Source of the DNA: Phyllobates terribilis
Taxonomy: Eukaryota
Assembly (NCBI RefSeq): GCF_046119375.1
Contig: NW_027362761.1
Coordinates: forward strand, 536,858,001 to 536,922,000
Direction of reading: 5' to 3'
DNA length: 64,000 bases
Shown here: positions 29,289-64,000 of the stretch, piece after piece
How the letters are laid out: the number at the start of each line of letters is the position of its first letter
Position numbering within the stretch: position 1 is the stretch's first letter
The notes under the pieces: generated by a model
Seen by the model: only the letters and a program-made list of their open reading frames with translations
The model's database searches: none
Told to the model about the DNA's origin: nothing
Program-made: the position numbers and the translations under genes

Positions 29289-30368
<1,080 letters not shown>

Positions 30369-34009: not shown

Positions 34010-34612
34010 TTTCATCGGCCTTCGGCTCTATCCTGATCCATGATGACTTGATGGATGAACGATCTGTAGGAAGATCGATCTTGTACAAGCCTAGATAGGT
34101 CCACCAGGGTCTTCTCCGCCGTTATCTTGATAGTATCAAGCCATCGGGTTGCTGGTCTTCCTCTTCACCTTGTTCCTTCTATTCTTCCGACCATAATGTC
34201 GTTCTCCAGTGATTGCTAAGTATGATGTGTCCAAAGTAGACAAATCGTAGCTTGATGATTCTTGCTTTGAGTGACATGTCTGGCTGATTAATTCCAAAAT
34301 TGATTTGTTTGTTCTTCTTGCCATCCATGCAGTGTCAGACTGAAGAACATTGTGCCCACCAGAGGATTTGATTCTCAGGGCCCCCCTTTCTCCCCCACTC
34401 AAGAACCCCATTGCTGCTGCAAAGTTTGCAATATGAACTCTCCTGAAGGAGAAGCCAGGGCCCACCGGAGGATTCTTCGGTTCTCTGATGGGCCAGTCCA
34501 ACCCTGCATCCATGGTTGAGATAACATCCATCTCCAGCACCACATTTCGAAGGCGTCGATTCTTCTTGTGTCTTGTTTCTTTATCATACACATAAATGCC
34601 TTTTTTCATATT
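34010..34612 (-). mobile_element. Degraded RTE/BovB-like LINE 3' fragment, interrupted by a MITE
   Basis: Minus-strand peptides IKKQDTRRIDAFEMWCWR, WMARRTNKSILE and RWLDTI match the RTE RT C-terminus. Confidence 0.8.
34330..34506. mobile_element. hAT-type MITE (177 bp)
   Basis: TIRs CAGTGTCAGACTG / CAGTCCAACCCTG; perfect 8-bp TSD CATCCATG. Confidence 0.85.
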
Positions 34613-35549: not shown

Positions 35550-36070
35550 TTAAAGGGTGATCGTTGTTTTATTTATTTAATTTTACATTTAATTTTTTTT
35601 TTGCATAAATCAATAGTACACATGAAAGTAAGAAACTTTGTAATATATCTGATCATACAAATCTGCTTCTTTCCCCTCCTGGACTAATCTTTCAATTTGA
35701 AAATGTTCAATTACTGGGTAAAATGTGTCTTCAGTGAACACAGATGTTCCTTTTACCGAGATAAGAGATGACAGTTGGTGCTCATAAAGTTCTATGGAGA
35801 GCTGTAACTGTCATTTTAGGAGAACTTGCAGCCTCTAGCTCCTCCCATTTCCATAGAATTTTAGAAGCACCAACTGCCATATGCTATTTCAGTAATGAGA
35901 AAGTCTGTCTTCACTGAATACACATTTTACCCCTGAATTGAGAGTGACAGATCAATCCAGACGGAGAAAGAAGCAGATTTATCTGATAAATTACAAAGTT
36001 GTTTATTTATAAAACCATACGATTGATTTATGACATAAAAATTAAAACAATGGTTATTCTTTAATGAAAG
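35550..36070. mobile_element. Palindromic MITE, probably T2/Kolobok type
   Basis: Starts TTAA|AGGG; long internal inverted repeats (35630-35670 vs 35965-36000; 35715-35810 vs 35860-35935). Right end is uncertain. Confidence 0.55.
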
Positions 36071-36685
36071 GTTCAAAGCAGTGGATTTTACTGCAAAGCT
36101 GTGGCAAAAGATATTCACCAAATTTGATGCCCACCGTCCCCATCCCTGAGATGCCACGCTCTCAACACCACGAATGCTGGCAGGTTATAGGGATTGCGTG
36201 ACATAACAATGTTATGCAATCCCCTGGATACAGTGCCGACACCACTGGAATGTTGCCGACACCGGATGTGTGTATAAGTGTTATTATTTTGCTGGGGGCA
36301 CACATAGTGGTTGAGAAGGGGTTGTCCGAGTAGTGGACAACCCCTTTAATTCTGGATAGGCAGTATGAATGCATTGACAGCTGTTTGTTACCATTCAAAT
36401 GGTCATAGGGTTGAGTGTCTATAGTGTCGGACAGGCTCCAGCCATTGCTGTCACATCCTGTTGCTATGGTGATTGGTAACACCAAGCTGTCAATCAGGCC
36501 TAAACCATACAAATTATTAGTATATGTTTTATTGAATAAGTATAAACTCCTGAGAGATGAACGCTCCATGGGTGACATCCTATTTAATGGTAGACAAAAG
36601 CTTTATAGATGAAAACAAAAAGTGAGGTTGTTGTTGTTGCCTATAGCAACCAATCAGCTACCCCTGAAAAATGTAAGGTAAGCTC

Positions 36686-39600
36686 CAGAGACGTAGATAG
36701 GGTTTTGGTTCAGGGGGGGCGAAACTTCTGAGTGGGCCCCTAACCAGGTAACCCTGATTACAGCTATGGTGGGGCACCCAGATAGTGGATTGTAAGGGAA
36801 CCTCAGCAGATGACCGCGCTGTTACTGAAGCTGACGTTCTTTCTGATTAAATTGTTCACTTTTCCCGTCTTTTCCATCTGGCCCAGACCGACACGACAAC
36901 TTCTCCATCCAGGACTCAGAGTCTCAGGTCTTCAGAGATCACAACAAAGACACATTTGACTCCTTACATTTCAGGCCACGTCCCCATCTATTCCCAACCT
37001 GCTCAAACTCTTCATCCTGCTGATAATCCGATACTGAGCTGCTGCTGCTGCTGTACATGTCCCTATTACTGCCCCTGCTGTGCTCCCTCTAGATGGTAAA
37101 ACAAACCTCTAGAATATAGTAATGCCGTGCGCAAGTGTCCTAGAAAACATTGCCCACATTGTGCCTTCTAGAAAGTAATAATGCCCTCTGTATGCTCCTC
37201 TGACAGTCACAATAACCTGAGTTCCCCTATATCGATAAGTGCCCACTTAAAATTTAATAATGCCCTGAGTCTCCCCCCTGTACAGTTCCCCCATACACAG
37301 CATTATGCTCTCCTATACATAGTATAATGCCACCTCACTGTATAGTACCCCCACACACAGTATACTGACCCCTTAGTGGCCTCCAAACTGATGTCTCCAA
37401 CACTGTATGATGGCCCCCACACTGTGCAAAAAACCCATATTATTTCCCACACTGTATGATGGCCCCCACGCTGTGCAAAGACCCCATATTATTTCCCACA
37501 CTGTATGATTGCCCCCACACTGTGCAAAGACCCCATATTATTTCCCACACTGTATGATTGCCCACACACTGTGCAAAAACCCCACATTATCTCCCACACT
37601 GTATGATTGCCCCCACACTGTGCAAAGACCCCACATTATCTCCCACACTGTATGATGGCCCCCACACTGTGCAAAGACTCCACATTATCTCCCACACTGT
37701 ATGATGGCCCCCACACTGTGCAAAGACCCCACACTATCTCCCACACTGTATGATGGCCCCCAAACTGTGCAAAGACCCCACATTATCTCCCACACTGTAT
37801 CACTCTAACTGTAATCCCCACACTGTACAAATAGCCTACATATAGTATAATGCCCCCTCATAGGCAGAATCTGTAGTATAATCCCCCGCAAAGGCAGAGT
37901 CTGTAGTATAATGCCCCCCCCCATAGGCAGAGTCTGTACTATAATGCTCCCCCCTTCCCATAGGCAGAGTATGTAGTATCATTACCTCCACCCATAGGCA
38001 GAGTCTGTAGTATAATGCCCCCCTTATAGGCAGAGTCTGTAGTATAATGCCCCCCCCTTATAGGTAGAGTCTGTAGTATAATGTGCCCCCCTAATAGGCA
38101 GAGTCTGTAGTATAATGCCCCCCCTTTATAGGCAGACTCTGTAGTATAATGTGCCTTCCACCCCAATAGGCAGAGTCTGTAGTATAATGTGCCTCCCCCT
38201 TATAGGCAGACTCTGTAGTATAATATGCCCCCCCATAGGCAGACTCTGTAGTATAATGTGCCCCTCTCTCATAGGCAGACTCTGTAGTATAATGTGCCCC
38301 TCCCTCATAGGCAGAGTCTGTAGTATAATGTGCCCCCCCCCTCGTAGGCTGAGTCTGTAGTATAATGCCCCCCCTTATAGGCAGAGTCTGTAGTATAATG
38401 TGCCTCCCCCCGTAATAGGCAGAGTCTGTAATATAATGTGCCCCCCCTCATAGGCAGACTCTGTAGTATAATGTGCCTCCCCCCCACATTATCTCCCACA
38501 CTGTATGATGTCCCCCACACTGTGCAAAGACTCCACATTATCTCCCACACTGTATGATGGCCCCCACACTGTGCAAAGACCCCACACTATCTCCCACACT
38601 GTATGATGGCCCCCACACTTTGCAAAGACCCCACATTATCTCCCACACTGTATTACTCTAACTGTAATCCCCACACTGTACAAATAGCCTACATATAGCA
38701 TAATGACCCCTCATAGGCGGAGTCTGTAGTATAATCCCCACATAGGCAGAGTCTGTAGTATAATGCCCCCTCATAGGCAGAGTCTGTAGTATAATGCCCC
38801 CTCATAGGCAGAGTCTGTAGTATAATGCCCCCCCATAGGCAGAGTCTGTAGTATAATGTGCCGCCCCCTAATAGGCAGAGTCTGTAGTATAATGCCCCCC
38901 CCATAGGCAGAATCTGTAGTATAATGCCCCCCCATAGGCAGGTCTGTAGTATAATGCCCCCCCATAGGCAGAGTCTGTACTATAATGCTCCCCCCATTCC
39001 CATAGGCAGAGTATGTAGTATAATTACCCCCACCCATAGGCAGAGTCTGTAGTATAATGCACCCCCTTATAGGCAGAGTCTGTAGTATAATGCCCCCCCC
39101 CTTATAGGCTGAGTCTGTAGTATAATGTGCCCCCCCTAATAGGCAGAGTCTGTAGTATAATGCCCCCCCCCTTTATAGGCAGAGTTTGTAGTATAATTCC
39201 CCCCCTTATAGGCTGAGTCTGTAGTATAATGTGCCCCCCCCCCAATAGGCAGAGTCTGTAGTATAATGCCCCCCCCTTATAGGCAGAGTCTGTAGTATAA
39301 TGCCCCCCTTATAGGCAGAGTCTGTAGTATAATGTGCCTCCCCCTAATAGGCAGAGTCTGTAATATAATGTGCCCCCCCCTCATAGGCAGAGTCTGTAGT
39401 ATAATGCCCCCCCTTATAGGCAGAGTCTGTAGTATAATGTGCCCCCCCCCCTCATAGGCAGAGTCTGTAGTATAATGTGCCTCTCCCTCATAGGCAGACT
39501 CTGTAGTATAATGTGCCCCCCATAGGCAGAGTCTGTAGTATAAAGTGCCCCCCCCATAGGCAGAGTCTGTAGTATAATGTGCCCCCCCCCCTCATAGGCA

Positions 39601-44897: not shown

Positions 44898-47800
44898 ACC
44901 GCTCGATGCTCGCCCGAGCATCTCACTGCTCGACATGCTCGGTGCTCGCCGAGTATTTCCGGGGTTGCTCGGCGGGAGCTCGGGTCCCCTCCCTGCATGT
45001 TTGCCGCTCTTTAGAGTGCCAATCAACATGCAGGGATTGTCTGCCACACACTGTAATGCTGTATCCATGTTGGTTGTGACATTACAGTGATTGGCTGGCC
45101 GCACAGCGTCATCAGGTCTATATCAGACCTGGTGCTGCTGTGCTCGTCACAGTCACTCCAGAATCAGACAGTGTAGGAGAGGTGCTGCTGCGTCAAGGAG
45201 AGAGTTGCATGTTTAGAGTTAGTATAGGTATTCCACAACATATATCTATAATATCCATCTGAACTAACAGTCCTTCTGAGGACTAATCCAGCTGCATAGA
45301 TATCAGTGCTAGGCAGGCAGGCTGTGTATGTGGCAGACTGCAGTGCATATAGCAAGAGAGTCCATTTCAGTTCTGTCTGCTGGTGCTTTTACAGATATTT
45401 CTAGAAATAAGCAATCCAGAGAACACAGTTTTTCTGCTCCATTTGCTTGTTGGCACTGCAGAATACAGCCAGATCCTTTCCATATGACAGCGCTAAAAAT
45501 CCATCTAGTTAAAACTATAGTTGGTCCATCGCATGGATCACATATAATTTCTCTGAAAATTCTGCCATTTCTGGCCTCCATTGAAATTTTGTTACAGTGT
45601 GTCAGCGAAGTTATTGACACGAAGTCGCTGTTAAAAATAGTTACCTACAAGCTATTTAAAACTGTGGTTTTCTGTCACACGGATCACATATCACTGCGGT
45701 TCAAATCCAGCCATTTGTACTGAACATTTAAAATATTGTCCTCCATTTATAACGGGCAAGGCGAGTGGCAAGGGACGGGGAAGTGGACGTGATGGTGATG
45801 ATGGTGCATGCAGAGGACGAGGCCGAGGCCGTGTACTAGCTGAAATTGTGCCACAACAAACACCCACATCTTCTCCCTCCACCTTCCTGTCCCAATTAAT
45901 AGGGGACAGCAGAACACCACTATTGAACAAAGAGCAGTGTGAAAAGGTTATTGGTTGGATAGCAGATATTGCTTCCAGTCACTTAGCCACCACCACCACC
46001 ACCACCACCCTGTCTTCCACATGGTCAAGTCTCAGTAGCCGTGAGTCTGGACCGCATATTCCTCACCCTGATCCTCCTTCATCCCACCATGCCGAGTGCC
46101 CGGAGACAACTGATCCTACAATTGGACACTCCGAAGAGCTGTTCACTTTTCCATTTATAGATTCGGACCTCTCGCCCGGTCCACTTGAAGTGGGGCAAGA
46201 GGACATCGCATGTAGCGATGCCAAAATATTTGCCCAGCCACGGTCACACGAAGGCGATGGTGGGAAACTGTCACAAGAGGTGGACGATGATGAGACACAA
46301 TTGCCATAAAGTCAGGAGGAGGACCAGGGTGCGGAAGTGGAAGATGAGGTGGTGGATGATATAGTAACTGACCCAACCTGCAGGGGGACATACAGAGGGA
46401 GGACAGCAGCACACAGGGGGAGGGAGGCGTAGCACCACAACAGGTAGGAAGAAGCAGTGTGGTGACTGCAGACAGAAGGCGGGCAACTGTTCCCCGTAAC
46501 ATCAACATGACAGAAGTTGGCAGTACAACTTTTAGGTCTTCCTGAGTCTAGCTGTTTTTTAAAGACTCTGCTGATAACCCCAAAAAGGCCATTTGCACCA
46601 CCTGTCAATCCAGCATCAGCAGGGGTAGCAAAACTACCAGCCTGACCACCACTGGCATGATCAGGCACATGGCAGCAAAGCACCCGACTTTGTGGGCCGA
46701 AACCCAGGGTCCAGGAACAGTGTCTGCGGGTGGCACCACTGCTGTTGTGCATGCAAGCCAATCTTCTGTCCATGGTGTATACGAAGATGCCTCCTGCCCT
46801 GCACCTGTCATTGCACACTCTCAACTAGCACCATCAGCAACCATGTCCACGTCCTTGTCCCAGCGCAGCGTTCAGTTGTCCCTACCCCAGTCCTTAGAAC
46901 GCAAGCGCAAAAACGCAGCCAACGCCCCACAGGCCTCCCTAATAAATTCACACATTTTGCGACTGCTTGCGCTCGAAATGTTGACTTTTAGGCTCGTGGA
47001 GACGGAAGGTTTCTGCAACCTGATGGCGGCGGCCGTCCCTCGGTACTCAGTCACCAGCCACCACTATTTCTCTCGGTGTGCCGTCCCCACATTACATGAG
47101 CACGTGTCCCACAATATTAGTGGTGCCCTCAACAATGCAGTTACTGGGAAAGTCCACCTAACCATGGATAAGTGCTTGTGGGCAGGGACGGTACATCTCA
47201 CTGATGGCACACTGGGTTAACATAGTGGAAGCCGGGACCCAGTCGGACCTTGGGACGGAACACGTCCTCCAGACGCTGAGGATTGCGGGCCCTGGGTCAA
47301 TCAGGATTGCCCCCACATTCTACAGCTCCTGCACCTCCTCCTCTTCCTCCTCTTCAGCATCCATCTCCAAAATAACCACATCAGTCACAAGCTTGAAGCA
47401 CTACAGCACTGCCTCGGCCAAGCAGCAACAGGCTGTGCTGAAGCTAATATGTTACGTGACAAACCACACAACGCTGAAGCGTTGTGGACAGCTCTGAAAG
47501 AGCAGGCAGATCTGTGGCTCACCCCGCTGAACATACAGCCAGGCATGTTCGTGTGTGACAATGGCCGGAACCTGGTGGTGGCTCTGAGGCAAAGCGAGAT
47601 TACACACGTACCATGCCTGGCTCATGTGCTTAACCTCGTGGTTCAGCGGTTTCTCAAAACCTACCCGGAGCTGACGGATCTGCTTGTCAAAGTACGCCAC
47701 CTGTGTGCCCATTTTAGAAAGTCACCTACAGCTTCCGCCTCCCTTGCCGTGCTTCAGGAACGTTTGCAGCTTCCGGCTCACCGACTGATGTGTGATGTCT

Positions 47801-47947
47801 CACGCGCGTTGGAACTCTACAGATGTTGGGAAGGATTTGTGAGCAGAAGAAGGCAGTTGTTAACTACCAGCATCAATAAGGCCGTCGGTATTCAGTTCAG
47901 ACTCCACATATAAGACCTCAGGAGTGGACATGGATGTTAGACATATG

Positions 47948-49210
47948 TGTAGCGCCCCGAGGGTTCGGCCGCTATAGGGGTATTGCACCTCAACCAGTGG
48001 TGTGATATTCCACTCCCAGGTAAGGATGGAGTATGGACCAGGGCTCAGTTAGCTGCATACACCACACACACCCCATTTCCGGGGGACAGCTCGACGGTGC
48101 TCCCATTTATATATATGCAGGCATAACTGACTATGTCCCTGGCTGGAGTGGGGAGGGGGGAGGAAAACCCAGTGATGTAGGAGCAGGTAGGGGTTGGGTT
48201 CTGAGCATAGGAAGGAGCTCATTGGGTGCAGGTCACCCGGGCTCACACACAGAGGAGGAGGTATAAAAGGTGGGCACCATCTTAGGAGGGAGTTCAGTCC
48301 GTTCAGTGGAGAAGTGACAGGGAGCAGAGGCTCTGTAGGAGGTCTGCTCAGAAGGCAGGCCTAGAGAAGAGGCCGGGGCCAGAGAGGAGAAGTGGAGGAG
48401 AGGAGAAGGAACAGGAAAGAAGGAGAAGAGATGGAGAAGCAGAAAGGCTCAGAAACAAGGCAGAAGGGACCCTAAGAGCCCATGAGATATCGGGTGAAGG
48501 GTCAGGCAGAATAAGGGTACCGGATCCCAAGTTGGTGGAGGTAAATTATCCCTCAGCCAAAGACCGGAGGTCGTGATCATCTATTGGTGCGACCCCCTGC
48601 TAAACCTACTAGGAAGGCACCATATAGGATAGCGGGAAACGGGGCCCACGTTTGCCTGCATAGATCCGCGGCAGCTGGACTGAAGTTTGGTCACTGGTGG
48701 GGCATGAGCCAGAGAAAGGACAGAGGGCAGTCCTGTGCCATACTCCTGAATTGCCTGAGGGTTGACCGAGCCCCTCACCTGGTGGACGCAGCACGGCTTG
48801 GGCAGTCATTACCGGCGGAAGTGACTTGGATATCAACTGTGAGTAAAAGACCCTGGACTGCAACACGTTGTCTCTGTGTTTCTTACCGCGCCAGCACTAA
48901 CGGTACTGGGACGCCCTGCACCACAACACCACCATCTACGCTCACTGCCCTGAGGCTACACTCCTCCCGTGGGGAGTTATACTATTCTCTGCTGCACCCA
49001 CAACACCAGCCTCAGCGGTCTGACTTGCAGCGGCGGTCATCCCTGACCGCAATCCACGGGTGGCGTAGTCGGACATTCAAAAACCCTACAAATAGACTGC
49101 CACAGCTATTGGTCTGACCACCCTGAGCCATGGGATCGGGTTGCCACTACTACCCCCATCATCACACTAAAGCCCGGTTCTGGGTGCCCCACGGCCCAGG
49201 GGGCGAGTCA
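47948..49210 (+). mobile_element. Solo LTR, family C (1263 bp)
   Basis: TGTAGCGCCCC...GGCGAGTCA with TATG TSD (47944-47947 / 49211-49214); TATA at ~48261. Confidence 0.92.
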
Positions 49211-49249
49211 TATGTACCATCCTCCAAAACTCTGAGGACTCCACCAAGA

Positions 49250-51376
49250 GGACTCAGAAAGAGAATAGGAGGGATCCAATGGCTGGATGTCCTTAAGGAC
49301 AAAAATGTCCAGGAAGGATGGGAAATTTTTAAAAATGAGATTCTCAAAGCACAATCGTTAGCAATCCCAAAAAGTAGGAAGAATGGGAAGCATTTAAGGA
49401 AACAGGATGGATGAACACAGAACTTAAACACATGCTAAAAAGAAAGAAAGAAATGTTTATCAAATGGAAAGAGGGAGGCATATCTAAAGAAGATTATAAT
49501 GCAGTCTGCAGATCCTGTAGGGCACGTATTAGGTTAGCTAAAACTGACAATGAATTAAGGCTTGCAAGAGATGTCAAAAGCAATAAAAAAGGATTTTGGG
49601 GGTATGTCAAAAGTAAAAGAAAAGTCAAAGATGCTATAGAATTTTTACAGGATGAAAATGGAGAAATGGTAAGAGAGGATGTTGAGAAGGCAGAACTTTT
49701 TAATTCCAATTTTGCATCAGTTTTCTCTCAGAAAGAAAATGTAACATCAACTGATCTTCACTGTCCTATTAAAGGAATAGAAGAATCCAGGTTATCTGTA
49801 AACAGAAAGATTGTGAGGGAATATTTAGCTAACATAAATAAGTTCAAGTCTCCAGGTCCAGATGAATTACACCCCAGAGTACTGAAGGAGATCGTAGAAG
49901 AAATTTTAGAACCACTCTCCATAATCTTTGAAAATTCTTGGAGAACAGGAGAAGTCCCAGAAGACTGGAGAAGAGCAAATGTTGTTCCTATCTTCAAAAA
50001 GGGGAAGAAGGTGGACCCAGGGAACTATAGGCCGGTGAGTCTGACTTCTATACCAGGAAAGATCTTTGAACAAATTATTAAACAACATGTATGTAAGTAC
50101 CTGGATAAGAATGAAGTGATTAACCAGAGTCAGCATGGGTTTGTAACTAACAAGTCATGTCAGACTAACTTAATTTCCTTCTATGACAGAATCACTGACT
50201 GGGTGGATCAGGGAAATGCTGTAGATATAGTATATCTTGACTTCAGCAAAGCATTTGACAAAGTATCTCACACCATCCTTATTGAAAAAATGACCAAGTA
50301 TGGAATGGACAAGGCAACTGTTAGGTGGATTCATAACTGGCTTAGTGATCAGACCCAAAGAGTGGTCGTAAATGGCTTCACATCCACTTGGGTGAATGTC
50401 TCAAGTGGGCTACCATAGGGCTCTGTCCTGGGACCTGTATTGTTCAACATCTTTATCAATGATTTAGATGAAGGAATTGAGGGTAAACTGATTAAATTTG
50501 CTGATGACACAAAGCTAGGAGGGATAGCTAACACGAGAGAAGAGAGAGAGAGGATTCAAAAAGACCTAAATAAACTGGAGCAGTGGGCAGCAACTAACAG
50601 AATGGTTTTTAACAGGGAAAAATGCAAGTACTATATCCTGGCAATAAAAATGAAAAAAGCATATACAGAATGGGAGGAATAGAGCTAAGCAACAGTACAT
50701 GTAAAAAAGACTTAGGTATACTAATAGATCATAGACTGAACATGAGTCAACAGTGTGATGCAGCAGCAAGAAAGGCAAATACAATTCTGGGATGTAACAG
50801 AAGCATACAGTCCAGATCACATGAAGTCATTATCGCACTTTACTCCTCTTTGGTCAGACGTCATCTGGAATACTGTGTTCAGTTTTGGGCACCACATTTT
50901 AAAAAAGACATCGACAAACTGGAGCAAGTCCAGAGAAGAGCGACCAGAATGGTGACCGGTCTGCAAACCATGTCCTATGAGGAACGGTTACAGGATTTGG
51001 GAATGTTTAGCTTGCAAAAAAGAAGACTGAAAGGAGACTTAATAGCTGTCTACAAATATCTCAAGGGATGTCACATTGTAGAAGGAACATCTTTATTCTC
51101 ATTTGCACAAGGAAAAACTAGAAGCAATGGGATGAAACTAAATGGGAGGAGAAACAGATTAGATATTATAAAAAACTTTTTGACACTTAGGCTGATCAAT
51201 GAGTGGAACAGGCTGCCACGAGAGGTGGTGAGTTCCCCTTCAATGGACATCTTCAAACAGAGGCTGGACAGACATCTGTCTGAGATGATTTAGTGAATCC
51301 TGCTTTGAGCAGGGGGTTGGACCAGATGACCCAGGAGGTCCCTTCCAACTCTACCATTCTATGATTCTATGATTCT
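49250..51376 (+). mobile_element. 5'-truncated CR1, same subfamily as 22539-28857, with a stop and frameshifts
   Basis: ORF fragments 49411-50418 and 50622-51293 are nearly identical to ORF2 at 22617; (ATTCTATG)n tail; AAGA at both junctions. Confidence 0.95.
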
Positions 51377-53900
51377 AAGATGGTGAGTGGCGCCATAATT
51401 AGTGTCACCATCCCACTTCTCTGTCTTCTGAAACGCTCTCTGCTCACAATCAAAGAGGATGCATTGCAGGCGGAGAACGATGAGATGGAGCAAGGAACCA
51501 TACAGGGTGATTACACACAGCCCAGCCTCATCTCATCCCAACGTGAATTGGGTGACAATGAGGAAGAGGAGGAGGAGGAAGAGCTAGTTTAATGCGCTAT
51601 AGATGGTACTACCTGCACAACTGTCATACCGTCTCTTCAGCATGGATGGCTTGAGGACAGGGATGGGGAAGAGAGCATGGTCAGTCGTCCTCTTGGTGAG
51701 GACATGGAAGTCTTGCCTGTTAGCAGTCTGGCACGCATGGCTTAGTTTATGTTACTCTGCATTTTCCGTGACCCTCGCATTCTCCAAATTTTGGGTGACA
51801 GTCATGACTGGTTGGTGACACTTCTAGACCCACACTACAAGGAGAACTTTCTATCTCTTATTCCCGAGGCGGACAGGTCTACAAAAATGGGGCAGTACCA
51901 GAAGGCCCCTGTTGCGGAATTATTAAAAACATTCCCATCTGAAAACTCTGGCGGCAGAGGTCACAGTTCTTCGGACAACCAAGGAGTACAGGCCAGAGAG
52001 ACACAACTCCAATCCAGCGAAGGCAGGGGAACACTGTCAAAGTTCTGGGATAGTTTTCTCAGACCCTCTCATCTTACAGGCCCTGTGGCGCGGGGTACTC
52101 TCACAGGGAGTGCAAAGTTTGGGAAAATGCTGAGGGAGTACCTTGCCGACCGTACCAATGTCCTCCGTGATTCCTCTGTGCCTTATAATTACTGGGTATC
52201 CAAGCTGGACACGTGGTATGAACTGGCTCTCTACACCTTGGAGGTCCTGGCCTGCCCAGCCTCTAGCATTTTATCAGAGCCGGTTTTTAGTGCAGCGGGT
52301 GGAATTATAACCGATAGGCATCTGCCTGTCAACTGAAAATGCTGACAGGCTGACTCTTATAAAAATGAACAAGGGCTGGATTGGGCCAGACTTCTCAACA
52401 CCACCAAATGATAGCAGCGTAACATAAACTCAAATCCAGTGTCTTTTTTTGGGAGGTCTATTCCCATGCACCTCTTCACACCTACACATGGGTATATGCT
52501 TCCTGATTTTGTCTATTTGCTCTTGTCCTCCTCCTTCTCCTCATCCTTCATCACCATATCATTGACCACCATATCTATCATATCACCTCCTCTACGTCTC
52601 TTCCAAGGGGCATTGGAGTGCCTCCAAATTTCTGGCAGCTTTTGAATTCACTGCATAGGCAAACACTATGGGAGACCCACTTGCTAATAATGGGAACATT
52701 GTTTTTAGGAGGCTGTCTGACCTCTACGTGTCTTGCAAGGGGAATTGGAGTTCCTCCAAATTTTTGGCAGCCTTGCATTCACTGCATAAGCAATAACAGT
52801 ATAGGAGACCCACTCGTTAATAATGGGAACAACAAAGCATAGCCGGCTGATGGCTCTCTAACAATAGTGAGGGCCGACTGCTAGCCCTATAAAAATAGGC
52901 TTTGTGACTTTCAGAGTTCCTCCATCATAAATGAAACAGGATGTGTCTGATGATGTGTGACACACCACATGGCCAGAAAAGGTTGTAAAATGTTAAAATG
53001 ACATTTCCCGGTGAATGCATTTGTCTTGGTTGAAAGCAATGCAAAAGTGCAAAAACGCATCAAAAACGCTACGTGTGAACATAGCCCAAGGTGTGGAGGA
53101 GCATTTTTGTTTTTGTATATTTATTTTGCCTTATATACAAGTTATTACCCTGGAAAGGATGTTCCTTAACATATTTCCCAGGAAAATCCATTTTGGTTTT
53201 GTTTTTGTATGTTTTATTGTGAGTCCGTAAACGTGGTGTAATACTCTGACAACGTTGTTGACAGAAGTGACCTGGGAGTCAGAAATGCTTCCAGGGGTCT
53301 TCCCCGTGCTGTTCCCATGTAATTTGAGCACTGTTTCCATCGATTTGGGCAATTTTTAGGCCCCCTGCAGACCGCCGGCAGGAGCCGCCTGAAAAATGCT
53401 CGAGTTTCCCATAGACTTACTGTACATTGGGCTCTTAACTCGGACCGAGCACTCGAGTATTCCAATTTTCTCGACCCGAGCATTGAGCACCTGAGCATTT
53501 TAGTGCTCGCCCATCACTAGTAATAATGTTCCCATCCTGGCCCCCATCCTGTAATAATGTCATCCATCCTGGCCCCTATCCTGTGATAATGTCCCCTGTC
53601 CTGGCCACCAAAATTTGTAATAATGTTCACTGTCCTGGGCACCTTCCTGTATTGATGTCCCCCGTCCACCCCCAATCTGTAATAATGTTCTCTGCCCTGG
53701 ACCCCGTCCTGTAATAATGACCCTTGTCCTAAGCCCCCAATCTGTAATAATGACCTAATGACCTCTGTCTGGCTCTCTTCTCCAACACATTTTAAATAAA
53801 ATAAACTATTCTTCTTACCCATGCATGCTCCAGCAGCCATGCTCCAGCAGCCAGCAGCGTCCTCTCCCTCCTTCACAGTGGGTGCAGGAGGCCAGGGCAT

Positions 53901-54185: not shown

Positions 54186-55823
54186 ATGACATTGATGACA
54201 TGTGCCACCTGCAGCAGGCATGCCGACATCAGCTGCCGTTCCCTGATTGACAATACATTTCAACTGAATGTACAGTACTTCTGAGGACACATACTCAGCT
54301 GAAAACAGCACTGGTGTCAGCGGGTCCCCTGACACTATGGGTGTGGTCACGGTTGCACTCACTGCGACCTCAATCATTACTCCCCTGTCTTCAGCGCTCA
54401 TCTGCTCACTGCCTCAACCCTGAAGAGACCACATATCGCTGACTTTCCATTCGAGGCTAAAACAGAAAGCTTCAGACGGAAAGTCACAGGATGTCCTGGA
54501 GAGAAGATCGTATCAGTCTAGTAATAAATTGTATTTAGAAATGTGTTAATGTGGCACCCCTGAGGGTTCTACCGCCACAGGGATGCTGCACCTCTTTAAT
54601 GGGGTGTAGTGTTCCTCCTCTGAGGTAAGAACAGTGCGATTGTCAGGACCCTTCCTTCACATCCAACACCACACTTCTCCCACCAGAGGGGGCTAATAGG
54701 CACTAGGTGCTGCCCCTACTGGAAATTGGGAAACTGGGGAACCAAGAGATAGGGGAACCAATTAGTGGGTGAGGGTGGAGGACTCACATTTTAGTGACAC
54801 TTTAAAATTTGATATTTAATACAAAGCCATTTTGGTTCTGGGTCTCTTGTATTGTGATCTCCCACGCTGATCCTGTGTGGACCTGCAGCGGAGGGAGACA
54901 CGGCCCTCGTACCCTGGCCTTGGGTCGAGGGGCAGGTTGCAGATGATGTATGTCTCAGCCCGGTCAAGGACCATGACCAAGAAGGCCCGGAGCTCAAGAG
55001 TGTAGCTCCACCGCAAATGGATCCCAGGGGGATGCAGACGGAGCGGTATACGCCACCTGTCCTCGCTATGCTGATCTATTCAGAGGGATTCCGGCTGCAA
55101 GAGGGGTACCGGCCCCCGACACCTGACCTTGCTACTCCACGTCCTGGTCAGGGAAGTCCGGTAGGCCCTGAGGATCCCACCGGGTAACGGAAGGAGCAGA
55201 GCTGCCACCCGAACCCTTTTTCTGAGTGAAGTTCAGAGGGAGACCCGGCCTATCTACACACACACACAGACAGGAAAGTACCCGGTCTGAAGTCTAGGAA
55301 CACTCTGGTGCGGGGTCCTGATTGAACACTGGACTGGCTCAGAGGTTGTCGGACCCCCCCGTCTCTGGTGACCGCAGAACTCCGCGAGGAGCTGGGAGAA
55401 GCCTTTCAACTGCAATCTCCACCGTGAGTAAAGCCTTGGAAGTTCACCCCTATGGCCTCCGGACTCTTTATTCTGCGCTACACCGCAACACGCAGTACCA
55501 GACCACCTGGACTACTACCCCCCCTCAATCCAGTCTCGCTGCCCTGAGGCCCTGCTCCGCCTGTGGGGAGCAGTAACAACTTCGGCTGCCATAACACCAT
55601 GCCTCGGCGGACTGCAGCAGCGCTGGTGGCCCTCACCAGGTGCCACAGGTGGCGTAGTCGTAATCAGCCACTCAACCCGGATAAGCCCACACCATCCTTT
55701 TTAATATGACGGCCCTGGGCATGGAGCGGGTCCGGGCCACAGCTGCACCCCATCTCTCCATCACAGGACCCGACCCGAGTCCCCCATCCGGGGCTTACAG
55801 AAGGCTTTGAGGCGTCACACAAA

Positions 55824-55841
55824 TGGCGTAGTCGGCAGGAT
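55824..55841 (+). promoter_or_regulatory. Primer binding site, tRNA-Ser
   Basis: TGGCGTAGTCGGCAGGAT, 4 nt after the LTR end. Confidence 0.92.
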
Positions 55842-56175
55842 CGCGTGCCCGCAGCAAAGGAATGAATTACCCATTGCTACCGGGTACTGTGTGCCTTACA
55901 CCTTGGACTGTCGTTTCCACTTAAAATGGCACCCACCCAAGAAGACGGTCTTCTAACACCTCCTATCGTGGGCCAGGCTCCCACATGGCGCCAAAAGTGT
56001 GGAATGCCCCTTCCATCAGAGACTGTCCGCGGGGTAATGCCCGTCAAAATGGATGGGCTGAACGAAGGCGTGCCTGTCAGCATACCGCCCTGGAGCCGCC
56101 CCGAAAGAGGAGGGAAAAAGAAAACAACAAGGTGCGGCCATAGGAGTTGGAGTTTGGCGACCATCAGGAGCGGAC

Positions 56176-57265
56176 ATGGACACTGCTGGAGCGCAACAAA
56201 CGGAATCTTCCGAACCCGGCCCAGGATCTTCTCTCGGCAGGGAGCGAAGCGGCAGGATCCTTACAGCGGGAGATATTGAATTTCTCCACCAGGAAGCCCC
56301 GAGTCTTGTACGGAGACTGGATGAGGCCCAGAAGGCGGCATCTGCTGCGTGGCGGGAAGAAATGCTGCTGCGCATCCGGGCCCGCCGCCAAGGAGCCGAA
56401 GCTCAGGAGGAAGCGGTGACAGAGGTCGCGAGCAGCCCAGAGGCGGGTGAGTGTGCTACCCCTGCCCCGGCTGCTGAGCCTACCATTCCCATGCTGGACC
56501 TCATGGCTGAATATCTCCTGCCCAGCGCGGTCACCTGGGAGCAGGTCTTTGCTCCGGAGCTGCAAGCATCAGCTATAGGTGGGGACCTGCGCTGCCGCCC
56601 AACTCCCGAATCGGAAGCGCCTGAGGCTGCTGGGGTATCCACCGACCCCAACCCGGACTTGTCCACACTTACGGAGGACCCGCAGCAACCCCTAATGACA
56701 CCGCTACCCGCACCAACAGTCACCTGGCCGGAGGATGAGGAGTGGGCCTGGGACAACCAGGGGGGGGGACCTGATGGGCTTCCCCCGGGAGACCCGGGCT
56801 GAAGTGCAGAGGAGGAGTGAGCGGTGCCGTGAGCAGATCCTCCAGCTCACTCGGGAGCAACGCCAAAGGGAGGTCCGCTGCGAGCGCCTCAAGGTGCGGG
56901 CCAAGGCTGCTAAGTCCCGGGTCCGACAAGAAGAGGCAACCTGTCCCAGTCCCCGTGTGGAAGGGCAAGTCGTCCGCTTCCACCATGAGGCGGGGTGGGG
57001 GTTCATCAGGAGTCCCCATTACCAAGACGACGTCTTTGTCAGCAGGCGGGACGTCGAGCCGCGTTTGAAGAAGGGACACCCTGGCCGGAACCTCTTCCCG
57101 GGTGACGTAGTTACCTACACCCGCCACCACGGGGTGCGAGGGTGGTACGCCCTGGACGTCCACAAGGTGTCCGGGAGCGATGCCCCCTCGCGCTCACCCT
57201 TAGAGGACCGGTCAGCCCCCGTCGGGAGGAATGAGCCTTTTCCCCGGAGGAGGCCCGAGAATTAA
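56176..57265 (+). CDS. Coiled-coil / Pro-acidic linker / cold-shock-domain protein (~362 aa if one G in the 56760-56768 run is removed; two overlapping ORFs as assembled)
   Basis: 56957-57169 encodes VEGQVVRFHHEAGWGFIRSPHYQDDVFVSRRDV...RNLFPGDVVTYTRHHGVRGWYALDVHKV, with RNP1-like GWGFI and RNP2-like VFV at CspA/Y-box spacing. Domain call made by eye. Confidence 0.8.
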
Positions 57266-60200
57266 GCAGCCCCGGCAGCTAAAACTTGTTTAAAGTTAAA
57301 ATGTTTATGTTTATGTTTAATTTGCTCTCCCCGGTTTCTAGAGACATTTGTCCCTGCGGACTTGCAGCAGACAGACTCCAACCCTGTAAATAGTTTGCAT
57401 CTCTTTAGGTGCTCCTTATTGGTTTTATGTAAAACCGCGGCTACTTCTACCTCAGACCTCAGAAGAAAAACCCATCTGGAGGTCCAACTCGGGATCTTCA
57501 TGCCCTGAAGCCACCCCAGGGCCTACGTTGGGGGTTTGGGACAGGTCCCTCGTGCTTCTGAACTGCCTTTTAGTCCTTGCACTTTAACCCGTCTGTCTGT
57601 GCATAAATGTCTCTGGATAATTATTGTACTTTTATATTTTATGCTGTCTGAAACATTAAAGAAGAAGTGCCTCCCATAAAGGGAAGATTGTTTGCTGTTA
57701 TATATAAAAAAAAATAAAAAAAAACTGTACCAGGTATTGCTCTTTTGCAGCCCGCGGACGTGCTGTGTTTCACCAGGGGGGAATGTGGCGCCCCTGAGGG
57801 TTCGACCGCCACAGGGATGCTGCACCTCTTTAATGGGGTGTAGTGTTCCTCCTCTGAGGTAAGAACAGTGCAATGGTCAGGACCCTTCCTTCACATCCAA
57901 CACCACACTTCTCCCACCAGAGGGGGCTAATAGGCACTAGGTGCTGCCCCTACTGGAAATTGGGAAACTGGGGAACCAAGAGATAGGGGAACCAATTAGT
58001 GGGTGAGGGTGGAGGACTCACATTTTAGTGACACTTTAAAATTTGATATTTAATACAAAGCCATTTGGTTCTAGGTCTCTTGTATTGTGATCTCCCACAC
58101 TGAACGTGGATCCTGTGTGGACCTGCAGCGGAGGGAGACACGGCCCTCGTACCCTGGCCTTGGGTCGAGGGGCAGGTTGCAGATGATGTATGCCTCAGCC
58201 CGGTCAAGGACCATGACCAAGAAGGCCCGGAGCTCAGGAGTGTAGCTCCACCACAAATGGATCCCAGGGGGATGCAGACGGAGCGGTATACGCCACCTGT
58301 CCTCGCTATGCTGATCTATTCAGAGGGATTCCGGCTGCAAGAGGGGTACCGGCCCCCGACACCTGACCTTGCTACTCCACGTCCTGGTCAGGGAAGTCCG
58401 GTAGGCCCTGAGGATCCCACCGGGTAATGGAAGGAGCGGAGCTGCCACCCGAACCCTTTTTCTGAGTGAAGTTCAGAGGGAGACCCGACCTATCTACACA
58501 CACACAGACAGGAAAGTACCCGGTCTGAAGTCTAGGAACACTCTGGTGCGGGGTCCTGATTGAACACTGGACTGGCTCAGAGGTTGTCGGACCCCCCCGT
58601 CTCTGGTGACCGCAGAACTCCGCGAGGAGCAGGGAGAAGCCTTTCAACTGCAATCTCCACCGTGAGTAAAAACCCTGGAAGTTCACCCCTATGGCCTCCG
58701 GACTCTTTATTCTGCATTACACCGCACTATTCAGCACCAGAACTCCTATACTACAACCCCCTCCATCCTGTCTCTCTGCCCTCAGGCCCTGCTCCGCCTG
58801 TGGGGAGTAGTAACAACGACGGCTGCCATAACACCCTGCCTCAGCGGACTGCAGCGGCGCTGGTGGCCTTCACCAGGTGCCACAGGTGGCGTAGTCGAGA
58901 TCAGCCACTCAACCCGGATAAGCTCGTACCATCCCTTTTTAATGTGACGGCCCTGGGCATGGAGCGGGTCCGGGCCACAGCTGCACCCCATCGACAACAT
59001 CGGACCCGGCTCCGAGTCCCCCATCTCCCAGGGTAGGGCTTTCAAGTGTCACACATTTCATTTAAAGATATTTATTAGGTGTCAGGAGACAAGGGAATCT
59101 GAGAGCAGCATACTGTACAGAGACCCTGATTCCGTGATGTGTCACTTGCTGGGCTGCTTGCTGTAGTTTTGATGGGCCCACTATTGTTGACTTTTGGCTT
59201 TGATATATTACATTTTCTATGGGATGATGAGAATTCCTGCTTGGAATGTTGTAATAGCAGAAAGTGGACCCACATGATTGCTGGATCTTCTAAGCTAAGT
59301 TCCTTGTCTGCGCATTATATATTGTGTGGTTCATAAATGATTGCTACATTTAGCCAGGACTCGCCACAATTAAATCCCTGGTGACATAGGGCCCTTGATA
59401 TCATACACAGCAGTGCAGCAGAAGATCGCAGTGACCTGATATCACATTCCCGGCCCCCTCCAGGCCGCTGCTTATTCATCTATCGTTTTAATTCCAAGAC
59501 TCTGTACATCCTGATCTCCATGTTCAAGGGGCTCAGAGTAATCGCACTGCCTGTACTGCAACATGGCCACGTTATGTATTTAAATTGAACATATAATCCT
59601 TAGGGCCCCCTCCCACCGACCTCATTATTAAGGCATTGTTGTAGTGTTCATAGAAGACTGAAATCTGTACCATCAGCCTGGACTTACACTGAAGGAAAGG
59701 ACCCCAGTATCTCCATGCTCCGGTAAAGAAATCGGGAGATGTGGATGAGATGACGGGGTTAAACAGGATAGTTCAGTCCCAGAAAATCAAATAGATATTG
59801 GATTCCTGTCCATACCTCAATAATGGACTGAAGGCTCCTCTCTGATGATGTCCTGTCCGCCTTAATAAAATAACCAAAGCCCTGTGTAAGCGCAGAAATT
59901 CTGGGTTGTGCTTCCCGCATTCCAGATTTCCTCGTATAAATGCCAGGGGTGCAGCTATATAGACCTACAGGAGCTTTAAAAACATCTCTTTCCAAATCCT
60001 TAGGCATCATAGGGTTTTTTCCAGAGCTTAAAGTTGTTGCGTGTATAGTGCGCGCTCTGAGGATTCTTAAGTGCCGGTATCTGGAGCGGGCAGTCATATG
60101 CCTGCAAGTATGTAAGCTCCCGGCCACATTCCGACTAGACTGTTTCCGGTCTTGCTCAATATACTTGCATTGAACGAGGCCACGTACATCTAGTCAGAAT

Positions 60201-61883
60201 GTGACCAGGAGCATGCATATCGAACACTTACGCTGGCACAGGAGAATCCTCATATCACTGCACGCTATGTGAGGATTCACATGTCTGCAGTCACATAGAC
60301 AACCCCTTTAACAATTGATGATCTGTCCATTTGATTGGTTATCAATATGAGGTAATTTGTGGCCTGACACCCAGTACCCCACCCTATCTTCTAAATTCTG
60401 CCCTGGCAGCGGCCCTATGCATTGCTCAGTGGCTGATACCGAGTACTTACTTTATCTCCCATTCAAGTGTGGCTCATTGTGGAGTGTATGTGTGTCACCC
60501 CAGGCCTGGATGCCACAAATATTAAAGGCTGTGTCTGAGAGCAGGAGGGAGGTTCCCTGGTCAGGGACAATTAGCATACAGCACCTCCTGTCCCAGGCCA
60601 GTAGGGGAAACTGGCTGCCCCTATAAAAGCTGGAACTGAGGGCAGGGTTAGGGAGAACTTTACGACCTAGCTCAGGACTGAGACTAGTCCCAGAGAAGGA
60701 GGGACAGTTCAGCTGTAGCCAAGGAGTCCGTGAGGCAGAGGAGAAGCTGCGAGCCAGGGACAGAGGCGACGAGAGCCGGTCCTGGCTGAGAGAACTACAC
60801 TACCGGGCATTGGGGTCCGAGGCTGTCAGGGATGTAAGCCCAGCAGCAGAGAACCAACCCGCGAGGGATTTCAGGTCCCTTGGCCTAAGAAGCCTGGAGG
60901 TTCCGCCACACAGAGGGACCAGTAGAGCAAGGAGAAGCCACAGGTACCTAAGGCCCGAGTCGCAAGCCATACAGGCGAAGTACACGGCCAGCTCAGGGAC
61001 GTGGGCTATTACACCACGAAAAGGGGGATAGTCAGCAAGGGCAGAGAGAGAACGGTAGGCCTTCACACTCACCCTGACCAGTGTGGCTCGCCCGAATGCT
61101 CTCAGACACCCAGGCCCATTCCTACCCGGTACTCCTGTTGGCTCAATAGTAATACCTACAATAAAGACCCTGGACTGTTTGAAGCGGACTCTGAACTCTC
61201 ATTACTGCGGCCTGCACTATCACCCCCAGCATTCACATACGCTTCCGTGAGGCTACACTCGTCCCGTTGGGAGTTATCCGACCCCTGTGCTGCACACCAA
61301 CATCAGCCTCAGTGGTCTGCCTTGCAGCGGCGGTCATCCCTGACCGCAATTCACGGGTGGCGTAGTCGGACATTCATAACTCTACAAATAGACTGCCACA
61401 GCATTTGGTCTGACCACCCTGAGCCACGGAATCGGGTTGCCACTACTACCCCCATCATCGCATAGAAGCCCAGTTCCGGGTGCCCCACGGCCCAGGGGGC
61501 GAGTCAGCTTTGGCATAGTCGGCAGGATTGTGACCAACCCGCCACAAACGGGTATTGCGTGCCTGAAAAAGACTTTATACTTACCTGAGTGAAGTTTCCC
61601 GCCATTCGGGGCAGTTTCCCGCCATTCGGAGCCGTTTCCCGCCATCGGGCACCATCTTCGGGACGCCGCGCGGGAAGAAGAGGGGCGTGGACGTCCAAAC
61701 CGCGCGAGACCTGAAGCGCCACCCTACGCACCGACGCTGCGCAAGGTCCTGGAAGGAGAGAGAGCGACGCTGACGTCACCAGGACGCGACGCAAGGTCCT
61801 CGCCCGGAGCAGCACCAGCGGAGCCGCAGCCTACGGAAGAGGATCAACGGAAGGTAGGCCACGGTTAACTAGGGGGGAGGAAG

Positions 61884-62876
61884 ATGTCGGAAGCGGAGGC
61901 CCCCTCTACCACCAGCGTGGCTGCAGCAGCGGTGATGCCGTTCTCCATGCCCTACATCCCCGAAGCGGCCTGGCTGCCCCAATACTCAGGGGAATCCCAT
62001 ACATTAACTGACTTTAAGGAAAGACTGCACAGTTTATTTAAAGTTTATTCCCTGACAGAAGAACAGAAAGTGAGCATTCTGACGGGGCAGCCAACTGGTG
62101 CAGCCCAGCGGGAAGTGAAATCATGGTCAGATGAGGAGAAAAGGACTGTAAAGGACATTCTGACCTGGCTGCGGGGTACCTTTGACACCCGTACCTCAGC
62201 AGAAATCAAAATGCGGTTCTATGGCTGTAAGCAGCGAGCCCAAGATAGTATCAGAGACCATGCCTTGAACCTGCAAGAAGCTCTGGGAGCAATCAAACTA
62301 GCTGACCCTGGCAGCGTGCAGGATACCGATAAACTGTTGACTGATCAGTTCATAGAAGGTCTGCTGTCCAGCGCCCACAGAACCCAGCTGATCCTCATGG
62401 CCCTACAGAACCCCGATTTGACTTTTGCACAATTCAAGGATAGGGCCATCCAGGTGCTCCAAGAACCCGCACCAGGTGGCGCTGTAGCTTCCCGGCGCCC
62501 TGCCATCACTTACCACCAGGAGGCGGCGCCCTACCCCGCAGACCTTGTGGGGGCTGATGCGCAGGCCCTAAACCCATCCCCTCCTGCAAACCTGCACCAT
62601 CAGGTCCAGGAACTAACAAAGAGTGTTGCTGCATTGACCAGGACCGTACAGTCGTTACAGATGGACCCGTCAGGACCAATCAAGCTGGCTTCCAGTCCGG
62701 AGGATGTCCCATGGCGTCGACGGAGGAGGATCCCGCTGTTCAGAGGGAAGCCCGCCGATCGTTACACTGAGGATGGACAGCCGATTTGCCGCCGTTGCAG
62801 CCAGCCGGGACTCGTAGCCAGGTACTGTACTTTAAATGGGTCCGACCTGGGGCAGTGGGCCAATCCCCAGGCATAA
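61884..62876 (+). CDS. gag: Gag (PNMA/retrotrans_gag-like), 330 aa, with degenerate zinc knuckle
   Basis: Follows PBS and leader; contains QFIEGL and C-terminal CRRCSQPGLVARYC (His position is Leu). Confidence 0.88.
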   Translation: MSEAEAPSTTSVAAAAVMPFSMPYIPEAAWLPQYSGESHTLTDFKERLHSLFKVYSLTEEQKVSILTGQPTGAAQREVKSWSDEEKRTVKDILTWLRGTFDTRTSAEIKMRFYGCKQRAQDSIRDHALNLQEALGAIKLADPGSVQDTDKLLTDQFIEGLLSSAHRTQLILMALQNPDLTFAQFKDRAIQVLQEPAPGGAVASRRPAITYHQEAAPYPADLVGADAQALNPSPPANLHHQVQELTKSVAALTRTVQSLQMDPSGPIKLASSPEDVPWRRRRRIPLFRGKPADRYTEDGQPICRRCSQPGLVARYCTLNGSDLGQWANPQA

Positions 62877-62891
62877 GGTCATCAGGCCCGT
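62831..62891 (+). promoter_or_regulatory. -1 programmed ribosomal frameshift signal
   Basis: T TTA AAT in the gag frame, short spacer, stem CCTGGGG/CCCCAGG; loop GGGCC can pair with GGCCC at ~62886; the protease lies in the -1 frame. Confidence 0.75.
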
Positions 62892-64000
62892 CTAATTGGC
62901 GTGATAAGTACGTAGGGGGATGCCCGTTTTTACCCGTAGTGCTGGACGGTATCCCCATGAGTGCACTGCTGGACACCGGGTCCCAAGTGACTACCATCCC
63001 TGTACTTTTCAAGCAGTACTGGAGTGACACTGACATAACCCGCTATCCAGACAGTGACTTGAGCATCATCGCCAGCAATGGCCAGCCCGTGCCACAGGTG
63101 GGGTTCAGAGAGATGACCATTAAGATTGATAAAGTTGAACTGCCGGCACAGGGAGTGATCATTGTGGACATTGACCGTCGAGAAAGTCACCCTAAAATAA
63201 CCTTGGGTACTAACGTGATTGAAAATTGTCTTTCAGAAGTGATTGTAATTTTGCAGCAGGTGGTGATGAATGCGAGCTCCAGCCAACAGAGGGTCCTCCA
63301 GAAAGAGATAAGAGCCCTGATGAGATGGCAACAGGTAGAACTGTCTGGTGGTGAGATCTGTAGCGTGAGGATGAGAGGGATTAAGAGGGAGAGACTACCA
63401 AGCCATGGTAGAACCCGTGTACTCAGACAGCAGGCCCACCATTTTGACAGCCCGGGGGGTGGTTGATATCAGCCATGGAAGGGTGCCCGTCCGGATCTTA
63501 AACATTGGGGAAAGGGAAGTACACTTGCCCCGGCACGCTACATTAGCCAAATTGTTTGCTGTCGAACACAATGCTCTCAGGGTCGTGGAACCCTTGCCTC
63601 CATCTCCACCGGTGGAGGATAATGGCTCCCAGAAACACAAGGAGGACTGGTGCCAGAAACTCCACGTGGGTGCTGACTCCTCTCCCTCGCACCAAAAACA
63701 AGGAGTCTACCGGGTGGTTCAGGAGTACGAGAGAATCTTTAGTAAGCACACCCTAGACTTCGGCAGGGTGAAAGGGGTAGAACACCACATCCCCACGGGG
63801 AGCCACCCACCAATAAAAGAGAGACACAGACCTGTACCCCCTGCACATTATCAGAATGCAAAGGGCATGCTGAGAGAAATGAAAGAAGCTGGGGTCATTA
63901 GATATAGCTGTAGCCCCTGGGCAGCTCCCTTGATTCTGGTAAAAAAGAAAGATGGTACCATGAGAATGTGCGTGGACTATAAACAAATCAATCGTATCAC
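62831..64000 (+). pseudogene. pol: pol (aspartic protease, linker, RT start) with a frameshift near 63370-63400
   Basis: ALLDTGSQVT in frame +2; linker and RT ([32 protein letters not shown]) in frame +3, open to the window end. Confidence 0.9.

Follow-up and report, generated by a model that had tools for sequence, protein, structure and literature searches.

MaLR and the plant TR-GAG elements are non-autonomous long terminal repeat (LTR) retrotransposons with a single open reading frame (ORF), and defective transducing retroviruses and maize Bs1 are helper-dependent LTR elements with a host-derived internal coding sequence. Among vertebrates, 1a11 and Xretpos of Xenopus are pol-less single-ORF LTR elements, the ORF of 1a11 being Gag-like (PMC4585706), and zebrafish Bik-1 and Bik-2, which encode Gag, and chicken ENS-1 are further non-autonomous elements of this layout (PMC12067270). 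We analyzed a 64,000-nucleotide stretch of the poison frog Phyllobates terribilis genome (contig NW_027362761.1, positions 536,858,001 to 536,922,000; hereafter the window), in which an LTR element at 54550-59053 carries a protein with a cold-shock domain (CSD) as its only cargo. This element shares with 1a11, Xretpos, Bik-1/2, ENS-1, MaLR and TR-GAG the LTR-ORF-LTR organization, the absence of pol, multiple copies and, presumably, copying by a partner. Whereas the characterized ORFs of the described vertebrate non-autonomous LTR elements that we found are Gag or Gag-like (1a11, Bik-1/2 and ENS-1), the frog CSD ORF is mostly disordered and no Gag was detected in it, and the family comprises about 26,000 copies as against the tens to hundreds reported for the 1a11, Bik and ENS-1 type. 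Transducing retroviruses and Bs1 are rare or low-copy, whereas the frog family is old, diversified, selected and still inserting. A parasite of a parasite thus keeps a host-type putative RNA-binding domain as its sole gene, under selection and in tens of thousands of copies.

No description of a CSD in an LTR element, and no prior annotation of a CSD-bearing Gypsy family, was found in the literature (Repbase, Dfam, subscription journals and supplements lay outside the scope). The term "cold shock" is absent from the main text, supplements aside, of PMC6278860, bioRxiv 2023.11.06.565769, PMC12822217, PMC12208295 and PMC4131045. The CSD family gives a name to part of the unclassified repeat fraction described, in the portions consulted, for poison-frog genomes (PMC12208295; bioRxiv 2023.11.06.565769).

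The window element lies on the plus strand and consists of a 5' LTR (54550-55821, 1272 bp), a primer-binding site (PBS, 55824-55841), a short leader (55842-55900), a single coding region, an AT-rich 3' untranslated region (57266-57772) whose frames are all shorter than 120 amino acids, none of them Pfam-tested, a polypurine tract (PPT, 57773-57783) and a 3' LTR (57784-59053, 1270 bp). Both LTRs have TG...CA ends and are 95% identical. The PBS, TGGCGTAGTCGGCAGGAT, is complementary over 18 nt to the CCA-bearing 3' end of tRNA-Ser(TGA/AGA), genes for which are present in the P. terribilis genome itself (three of eight short fetched stretches were tRNA genes; L186-L188), and the PPT, CCAGGGGGGAA, ends at 57783 and is of the type found in an autonomous Gypsy element elsewhere in the genome (L037). 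Motifs in the leader, a probable packaging signal, match the Gypsy-related elements at 7224 (7244-7275) and 61511 (61550). Neither Pfam nor hhalign detected a gag or pol domain inside 54550-59053. The LTR pair, the tRNA-Ser PBS, the PPT, the leader shared with neighboring Gypsy elements and the lack of gag and pol, all named in the original prediction, were therefore verified.

The single internal ORF of that prediction held only in part: the CSD protein is the sole cargo, but in the window copy its coding region is split over three frames. The first piece (55884-56123), delineated by tblastn with the natural open copies L039 and L117 and by alignment, has a conserved PPIVG..WRQ motif and a basic patch. 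The second (56089-56760), defined by its ORFs and by an AlphaFold model of L117, comprises a first helix and a disordered Pro/Glu/Ala-rich linker, and the third (56750-57265; ORFs, Pfam and AlphaFold) comprises a DLMGF motif, a 49-residue charged helix (56795-56941, residues H10-58 of the predicted model), the CSD (56954-57166; an OB barrel by Pfam PF00313, predicted structure and PDB profile searches) and a tail. The copy is flanked by TTAA on the left and CATT on the right and has no target-site duplication, and its LTR mismatches are unevenly spread (13 in 877 sites, then 44 in 381). Because the target duplication is absent and the LTR differences are uneven, the window copy is probably a decayed recombinant.

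The C-terminal CSD itself was confirmed. PF00313 matched 56699-57262 at 28.0 bits (cut-off 27; E 2e-6), although some divergent family members scored 14-27 bits, below the cut-off. AlphaFold, given 56768-57178 together with 33 natural relatives, predicted the 49-residue helix followed by a five-strand OB barrel with a mean pLDDT of 87.5. The best structural match by VIA-align was bacterial CspB (Z 11.4, rmsd 1.7, 67 residues aligned), and CRHSP-24, Unr and Lin28 were matched as well. ESM Atlas returned generic CSD clusters only (0.82-0.83) and no usable match to the N-terminal part. The full-length natural copy L117 was modeled as disordered except for two helices and the barrel, with 318 of 521 residues at low confidence, and within that limit no capsid-like helical domain was seen. 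As for Gag homology, Pfam found only the CSD in the ORF, and hhalign against the neighboring Gag gave a probability of 0.2%. Homodimer prediction for helix plus CSD gave a score of only 0.03, too low to speak for or against a dimer.

A strict codon pattern spanning RNP1 and RNP2 had 25,961 exact matches in the 10.6-Gb genome and none in the control. This number is a lower bound because the pattern, which caught 77 of 117 small loci, misses the second lineage described below and some subfamilies, as well as host copies. Genome searches with an element domain each returned 30,000-37,000 first-look candidates, 150 of which were scored per search, while the Pfam cold-shock family returned 33,380 and a decayed host Y-box query 10. 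A repeat pair flanks the domain in 44 of 56 wide loci, and a 4-bp target duplication was present in 20 of the 25 copies with both outer ends parsed, in a tally that omits L138/139, L145 and L175 and in which several misses were tandem arrays or parsing errors. Nearly all examined copies stand alone in retrotransposons without copying genes of their own. Provided that most copies have the full length of 4.4-5.1 kb, the family would occupy about 120 Mb, or about 1% of the assembly, solo LTRs excluded. Clean LTR pairs are about 91% to 100% identical, and at a substitution rate of 2.5e-9 per site per year (bioRxiv 2023.11.06.565769) the insertions would span roughly the last 18 million years up to the present. 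In the youngest subfamily the LTRs are 99.9-100% identical and the open frames 737-827 codons long; all 150 scored loci were identical to one young query domain. No run recorded as RNA contained the element. Three sets of contigs, all of a single study and only guessed to derive from RNA, matched the LTRs and gave sparse coverage of the ORF, which is no evidence on expression.

The family consists of many subfamilies on two LTR backbones that are unrelated to each other. In the second lineage the LTRs and PPT are unrelated to those of the first, the PBS is the same, and protein similarity is confined to the CSD and its immediate flank. Its loci (L166-L170, L172, L176 and L177, e.g. G000:C8:112.56 Mb) have 1.03-kb LTRs, a tRNA-Ser PBS and an 819-codon open frame with the CSD in mid-protein; the youngest LTRs are about 99% identical, and some copies are in tandem at 3.6-kb spacing. 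Further subfamilies (L140-L142, L144) have a different PBS, starting TGGCGTCA, which we take to match tRNA-Ser(CGA). A basal CSD type occurs as three local copies (L128/L146, L147/L175; G000:C4:791.48-791.52 Mb). For the divergent L128/L175, L171, L173, L174 and L143 types, no LTR pair or PBS of their own was recovered.

Relatives were met in poison frogs only. Among the best 150 of 188 matches in 1.84 billion cluster representatives, seven were single-domain proteins, all of them protein models from Ranitomeya variabilis, R. imitator, Anomaloglossus baeobatrachus or P. terribilis, labelled "uncharacterized" or "CSD domain-containing". Two further searches together added two models from the same genera: a region search gave three proteins, again from poison frogs, and a longer search gave nine matches, of which one was a Ranitomeya model and the other eight were proteins outside the family, either multi-domain or unnamed. 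The whole-protein word-index homolog search found nothing among 8000 scored candidates. The absence of relatives outside poison frogs is weakly tested, the longer search having missed known members. Anomaloglossus and dendrobatids diverged tens of millions of years ago, and the presence of the family in both suggests that it originated tens of millions of years ago. Several of the "uncharacterized" or CSD-containing frog gene models at NCBI are probably transposon ORFs. Two models (P0154, P0156), in which the element ORF is fused to a DDE_Tnp_4 transposase or the CSD to astacin/CUB, are probably annotation chimeras.

We examined selection on the ORF in 11 natural open copies picked by protein score. 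In the 13 listed pairs, the ratio of nonsynonymous to synonymous substitution rates (dN/dS) of the CSD was 0.00-0.18 in the nine with finite dS, the other four being saturated, and that of the linker was 0.24-0.66. Over 52 between-subfamily pairs, the mean ratio of uncorrected differences (pN/pS) rose from 0.33 in the CSD through 0.49 in the long helix and 0.64 in the first helix to 0.74 in the linker and 0.77 in the N-terminus. The sole control for bias from choosing by score was a contrast within subfamily A (24 of 30 copies, six near-identical duplicates having been dropped). CSD variants shared by at least two copies comprised 7 nonsynonymous and 34 synonymous changes as against 21 and 22 for single-copy variants (P=0.003), and among shared variants the CSD also differed from the linker (7:34 versus 32:27, P=0.0002). 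Single-copy linker variants were near neutral, with 92 nonsynonymous changes, 43 synonymous changes and 6 stops. These comparisons indicate that the CSD is under purifying selection with a dN/dS of about 0.1, and not in neutral decay. Selection acts on the replicating lineages, whereas inserted copies mostly decay, as the near-neutral single-copy linker variants with their stops indicate. The same counts bear on whether a benefit to the host explains why the protein persists: zebrafish Bik-1 Gag offers a precedent (PMC12067270) and NCBI lists some copies as genes, but inserted copies that mostly decay fit such a role badly, and we regard it as highly improbable.

A non-autonomous LTR element with a CSD protein as its only cargo, as originally predicted, is thus borne out as a multi-copy family under selection. 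The contrary outcomes named with that prediction (no CSD hit, a single copy, neutral decay or a processed pseudogene) did not occur, because the family is multi-copy and selected and is not a processed pseudogene. The last of these was ruled out by the LTRs, the copy number and the selection. True processed copies of CSDE1 and of a Y-box gene in the same genome look unlike the CSD elements.

Plant LTR elements with additional ORFs (aORFs) and orchid elements with AlkB have reportedly been described. Bdelloid rotifer LTR elements carry additional ORF3 types alongside gag-pol (PMC5408684). In the parts of these reports consulted, the resemblance to the frog elements is that a captured non-retroviral domain resides on an LTR element; the rotifer ORF, however, accompanies gag and pol, whereas the frog CSD ORF is the only gene. 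At the level of literature listings, "cold shock domain" was not met for the rotifer, plant aORF or orchid AlkB elements.

One origin put forward by the original prediction was an accessory gene of a Gypsy lineage, in which case the CSD elements would be deletion derivatives of a rare or extinct autonomous element. The PBS, PPT and U5 shared with autonomous elements speak for this, as do the extra ORFs known in LTR elements (PMC5408684), but no autonomous carrier was found. Nested insertions aside, the ORF and gag-pol never shared one LTR pair across the 40 wide loci, where gag, pol and integrase matches were either external to the LTR pair or part of nested insertions. In a positional test on the first 18.4 Mb of contig C1, with 48 domain loci and 100 helper reverse transcriptase (RT) motifs, a same-strand helper RT lay within 7 kb of one domain locus, compared with 1.7 expected at random, and that case was a nested insertion in which pol is cut by the 5' LTR of the CSD element. 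One candidate autonomous carrier (L037) was rejected on similar grounds, because the 3' LTR of its gag-pol element abuts the middle of a CSD ORF. In eight of nine loci taken in positional order, one tandem neighbor being skipped, a PBS matching at 17-18 of 18 positions precedes the domain by 1.5-1.85 kb. The ORF comes directly after the PBS and ahead of the PPT, and selection is visible among the pol-less subfamilies themselves. Thus, the CSD ORF is not an accessory gene of the autonomous Gypsy elements sampled, and we consider its descent from a rare or extinct carrier very unlikely.

Autonomous elements that could serve as helpers are plentiful: a helper-type RT motif has 44,650 genomic copies. 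The candidate helper L037, a near-relative of the window Gypsy, has the domain order protease-RT-RNase H-integrase (PR-RT-RH-IN). The window Gypsy itself (60490-64000, plus strand) is of the candidate-helper type, with an LTR, a tRNA-Ser PBS at 61511, a PNMA-like gag, a protease and the start of RT; it is decayed and runs out of the window. Helpers and first-backbone CSD elements have the PBS, PPT type, U5 and leader start in common. The likeness over the last ~350 bp of the LTR is 76-85% in subfamilies C and F and less in A and B, and that over ~65 nt of the leader is 79-97%, the subfamily F leader matching the 61.5-kb Gypsy at 97% over 67 nt; U3 is not shared. By its organization and first-backbone signals, the CSD element is a non-autonomous Ty3/Gypsy-type LTR retrotransposon, and we infer that it is mobilized by helpers. 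It presumably works as a helper-dependent LTR element and is of neither the Gag-only nor the accessory-ORF kind. In some loci (L184, L185, L189-L193), further copied tRNA-Ser sequence follows the PBS and lengthens the primer site to as much as about 34 nt before element sequence resumes; such extended primer sites occur in helper-type and CSD-type elements alike.

The other origin put forward, a captured and strongly diverged host CSD, is favored, with Y-box proteins as the nearest known type, although the tree does not settle the donor. With a profile of 21 element domains searched against PDB, the top eight hits were YBX1/2 (56-58 bits, with an ungapped YBX1 alignment), followed by bacterial Csp (47), LIN28 (23), CSDE1 (21) and CARHSP1 (19 bits); a narrower profile gave the same order with a slim margin (31 versus 29 bits). 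The element domains also have the long beta3-beta4 loop of the Y-box type. This best profile match and the loop make a host Y-box gene the likely source of the domain. A tree of 37 rows united 23 of the 24 element rows in one clade (97/96) in which the L128/L175 type branches first, and L143 fell outside on a long branch. A grouping of the elements with the decayed Y-box row was not rejected (p-AU 0.59; 76 columns, one Y-box row). No intact host YBX gene was recovered by the searches of the P. terribilis genome. A decayed processed Y-box copy was found at L145 (G000:C11:349.41 Mb; 61 bits to YBX2), and L119-L124 (G000:C1:734.44 Mb) represent a processed copy, duplicated in part, of a gene with several CSDs, presumably CSDE1.

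Compared with YBX1 and YBX2 (FRGY2), the frog domain gives its best profile match and an ungapped alignment, keeps the F74 and F85 equivalents and has the same fold, but identity is only about 30%, the W65 and H87 equivalents are replaced and the main lineage has one extra loop residue. The basal L128/L175 type keeps the RNP2 histidine (H87) and the exact Y-box loop length. Furthermore, the frog domain lies near the C-terminus after a long helix, and Y-box flanking regions were not recognized. All 34 aligned copies of lineage I have the F74 and F85 equivalents unchanged. Across 99 distinct copies, drawn with a search pattern that largely presupposes these two phenylalanines, the Y72 position is mostly W, W65 is K/R/E, H87 is S/T/N and Q88 is R. 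W65 and H87 are named among the nucleic-acid contacts of YBX1 (PMC7498358). To judge from these alignments, the putative binding surface is still aromatic and basic, yet remodeled, and a plain Y-box mimic is unlikely because almost every copy has other residues at the W65 and H87 positions.

Why a helper-dependent element needs a protein is a tractable question raised by this family. We lean, by a small degree, toward a cis-acting RNA coat or chaperone that stabilizes the element RNA and helps its passage into and through helper Gypsy particles. The element would be transcribed from its own U3 and its single ORF translated, and the protein would contact single-stranded RNA with the aromatic face that it has retained (F74, F85 and Y72-to-W equivalents) and with the added arginines. 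Binding would occur on its own RNA while the protein is being made, i.e. with cis preference, because an ORF in a many-copy parasite should stay selected only if its product favors its own template; LINE-1 shows such a preference. Helper Gag and Pol would then carry out packaging, tRNA-Ser-primed reverse transcription and integration, so that the element gives the promoter and cis-signals and the helper gives the particle and enzymes. The PBS extended by copied tRNA-Ser sequence in L185 and L192, loci with family leaders, fits tRNA-primed reverse transcription because such a footprint is expected from it. Host YB-1 has reportedly been identified as a cofactor of human immunodeficiency virus (HIV) replication, which makes an RNA-coat role in a retroelement plausible. 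LINE-1 ORF1p and hepatitis delta antigen likewise combine a long helix with an RNA-binding module that serves the encoding RNA, and hepatitis delta relies on the particle of a helper, as proposed for the frog elements. Both belong to another element class and have another fold, and the likeness drawn here is a functional one.

A wider proposal, which we put forward only tentatively and hold to be possible but doubtful, is that these elements form a satellite class, gag-less and pol-less, in which a host Y-box domain was turned into an RNA coat to win Gypsy packaging. The domain would have persisted on two unrelated backbones over tens of millions of years, and the class would now rival its helpers in number (~26,000 versus 45,000 motif copies) and help to inflate poison-frog genomes.

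Several results weigh against the RNA-coat reading or parts of it. With other residues at the W65 and H87 positions in nearly all of the 99 distinct copies, the domain may have another affinity or another target, DNA being one possible ligand. L185 and 7219-8583 in the window are derivatives that lack the ORF or are deleted; they count against a strict need for the CSD protein, which may be dispensable or supplied in trans. Choosing copies by protein score biases dN downward. No autonomous partner of the second backbone was found among the loci examined, and a rare autonomous carrier may exist below a few percent of loci. Foldseek places bacterial Csp structures slightly above YBX, and in the tree, built from 76 columns with a single decayed Y-box row, the family is not placed beside that row.

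Two other functions were weighed against the RNA coat. The protein could be a trans-acting suppressor or decoy of germline RNA control (the PIWI-interacting RNA pathway or Y-box masking) that boosts both the family and its helpers. A Y-box-type domain on a long disordered, Pro- and acid-rich protein would suit this role, Gypsy RNA is abundant in poison-frog ova according to the portion of PMC6278860 consulted, and CSD elements and helpers are both very abundant. A public good acting in trans would, however, be open to cheating and fit poorly with a dN/dS of about 0.1 across subfamilies, and two Y-box RNA contacts are replaced; we consider it unlikely, though worth keeping in mind. Alternatively, the protein could be a nuclear activator of its own LTR, the CSD binding DNA and the acidic, Pro-rich region activating transcription. 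The N-terminal basic patches resemble nuclear localization signals, and the elements have their own U3 and share only U5, PBS and leader with helpers. The YBX1 CSD binds single-stranded DNA (PMC7498358). Nevertheless, a nuclear factor would have no cis preference, and the same domain type occurs on two backbones without LTR similarity, which makes this activator improbable.

Several other elements in the window are related to the CSD elements or their helpers. A short LTR element at 6154-9647 has a 1.36-kb interior with a helper-type leader and a helper-type 3' end. The interior contains a 5' piece of gag with 75% likeness to the 61.5-kb Gypsy and about 300 bp that are 68-69% like the 3' untranslated region of CSD elements; judged by this composition, it is possibly a recombinant of helper and satellite-element RNA. 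This element sits in an 8.3-kb duplicated block of a 32-bp satellite. Solo LTRs at 4708-5979 and 13102-14373, also within 32-bp satellite DNA, are 69-78% like the CSD-element LTR. A further related LTR lies on the minus strand at ~17795-19070, and another, at ~47945-49213, is 88% like subfamily F LTRs. The remaining features are a long interspersed nuclear element (LINE) whose ORF1 encodes a GDSL esterase and whose ORF2 encodes an endonuclease-RT (22617-26311, minus strand), a Tc1 transposase (29289-30368, minus strand) and hAT pieces with a BED finger and a dimerization domain (46552-52336, plus strand), which are interrupted by other elements.

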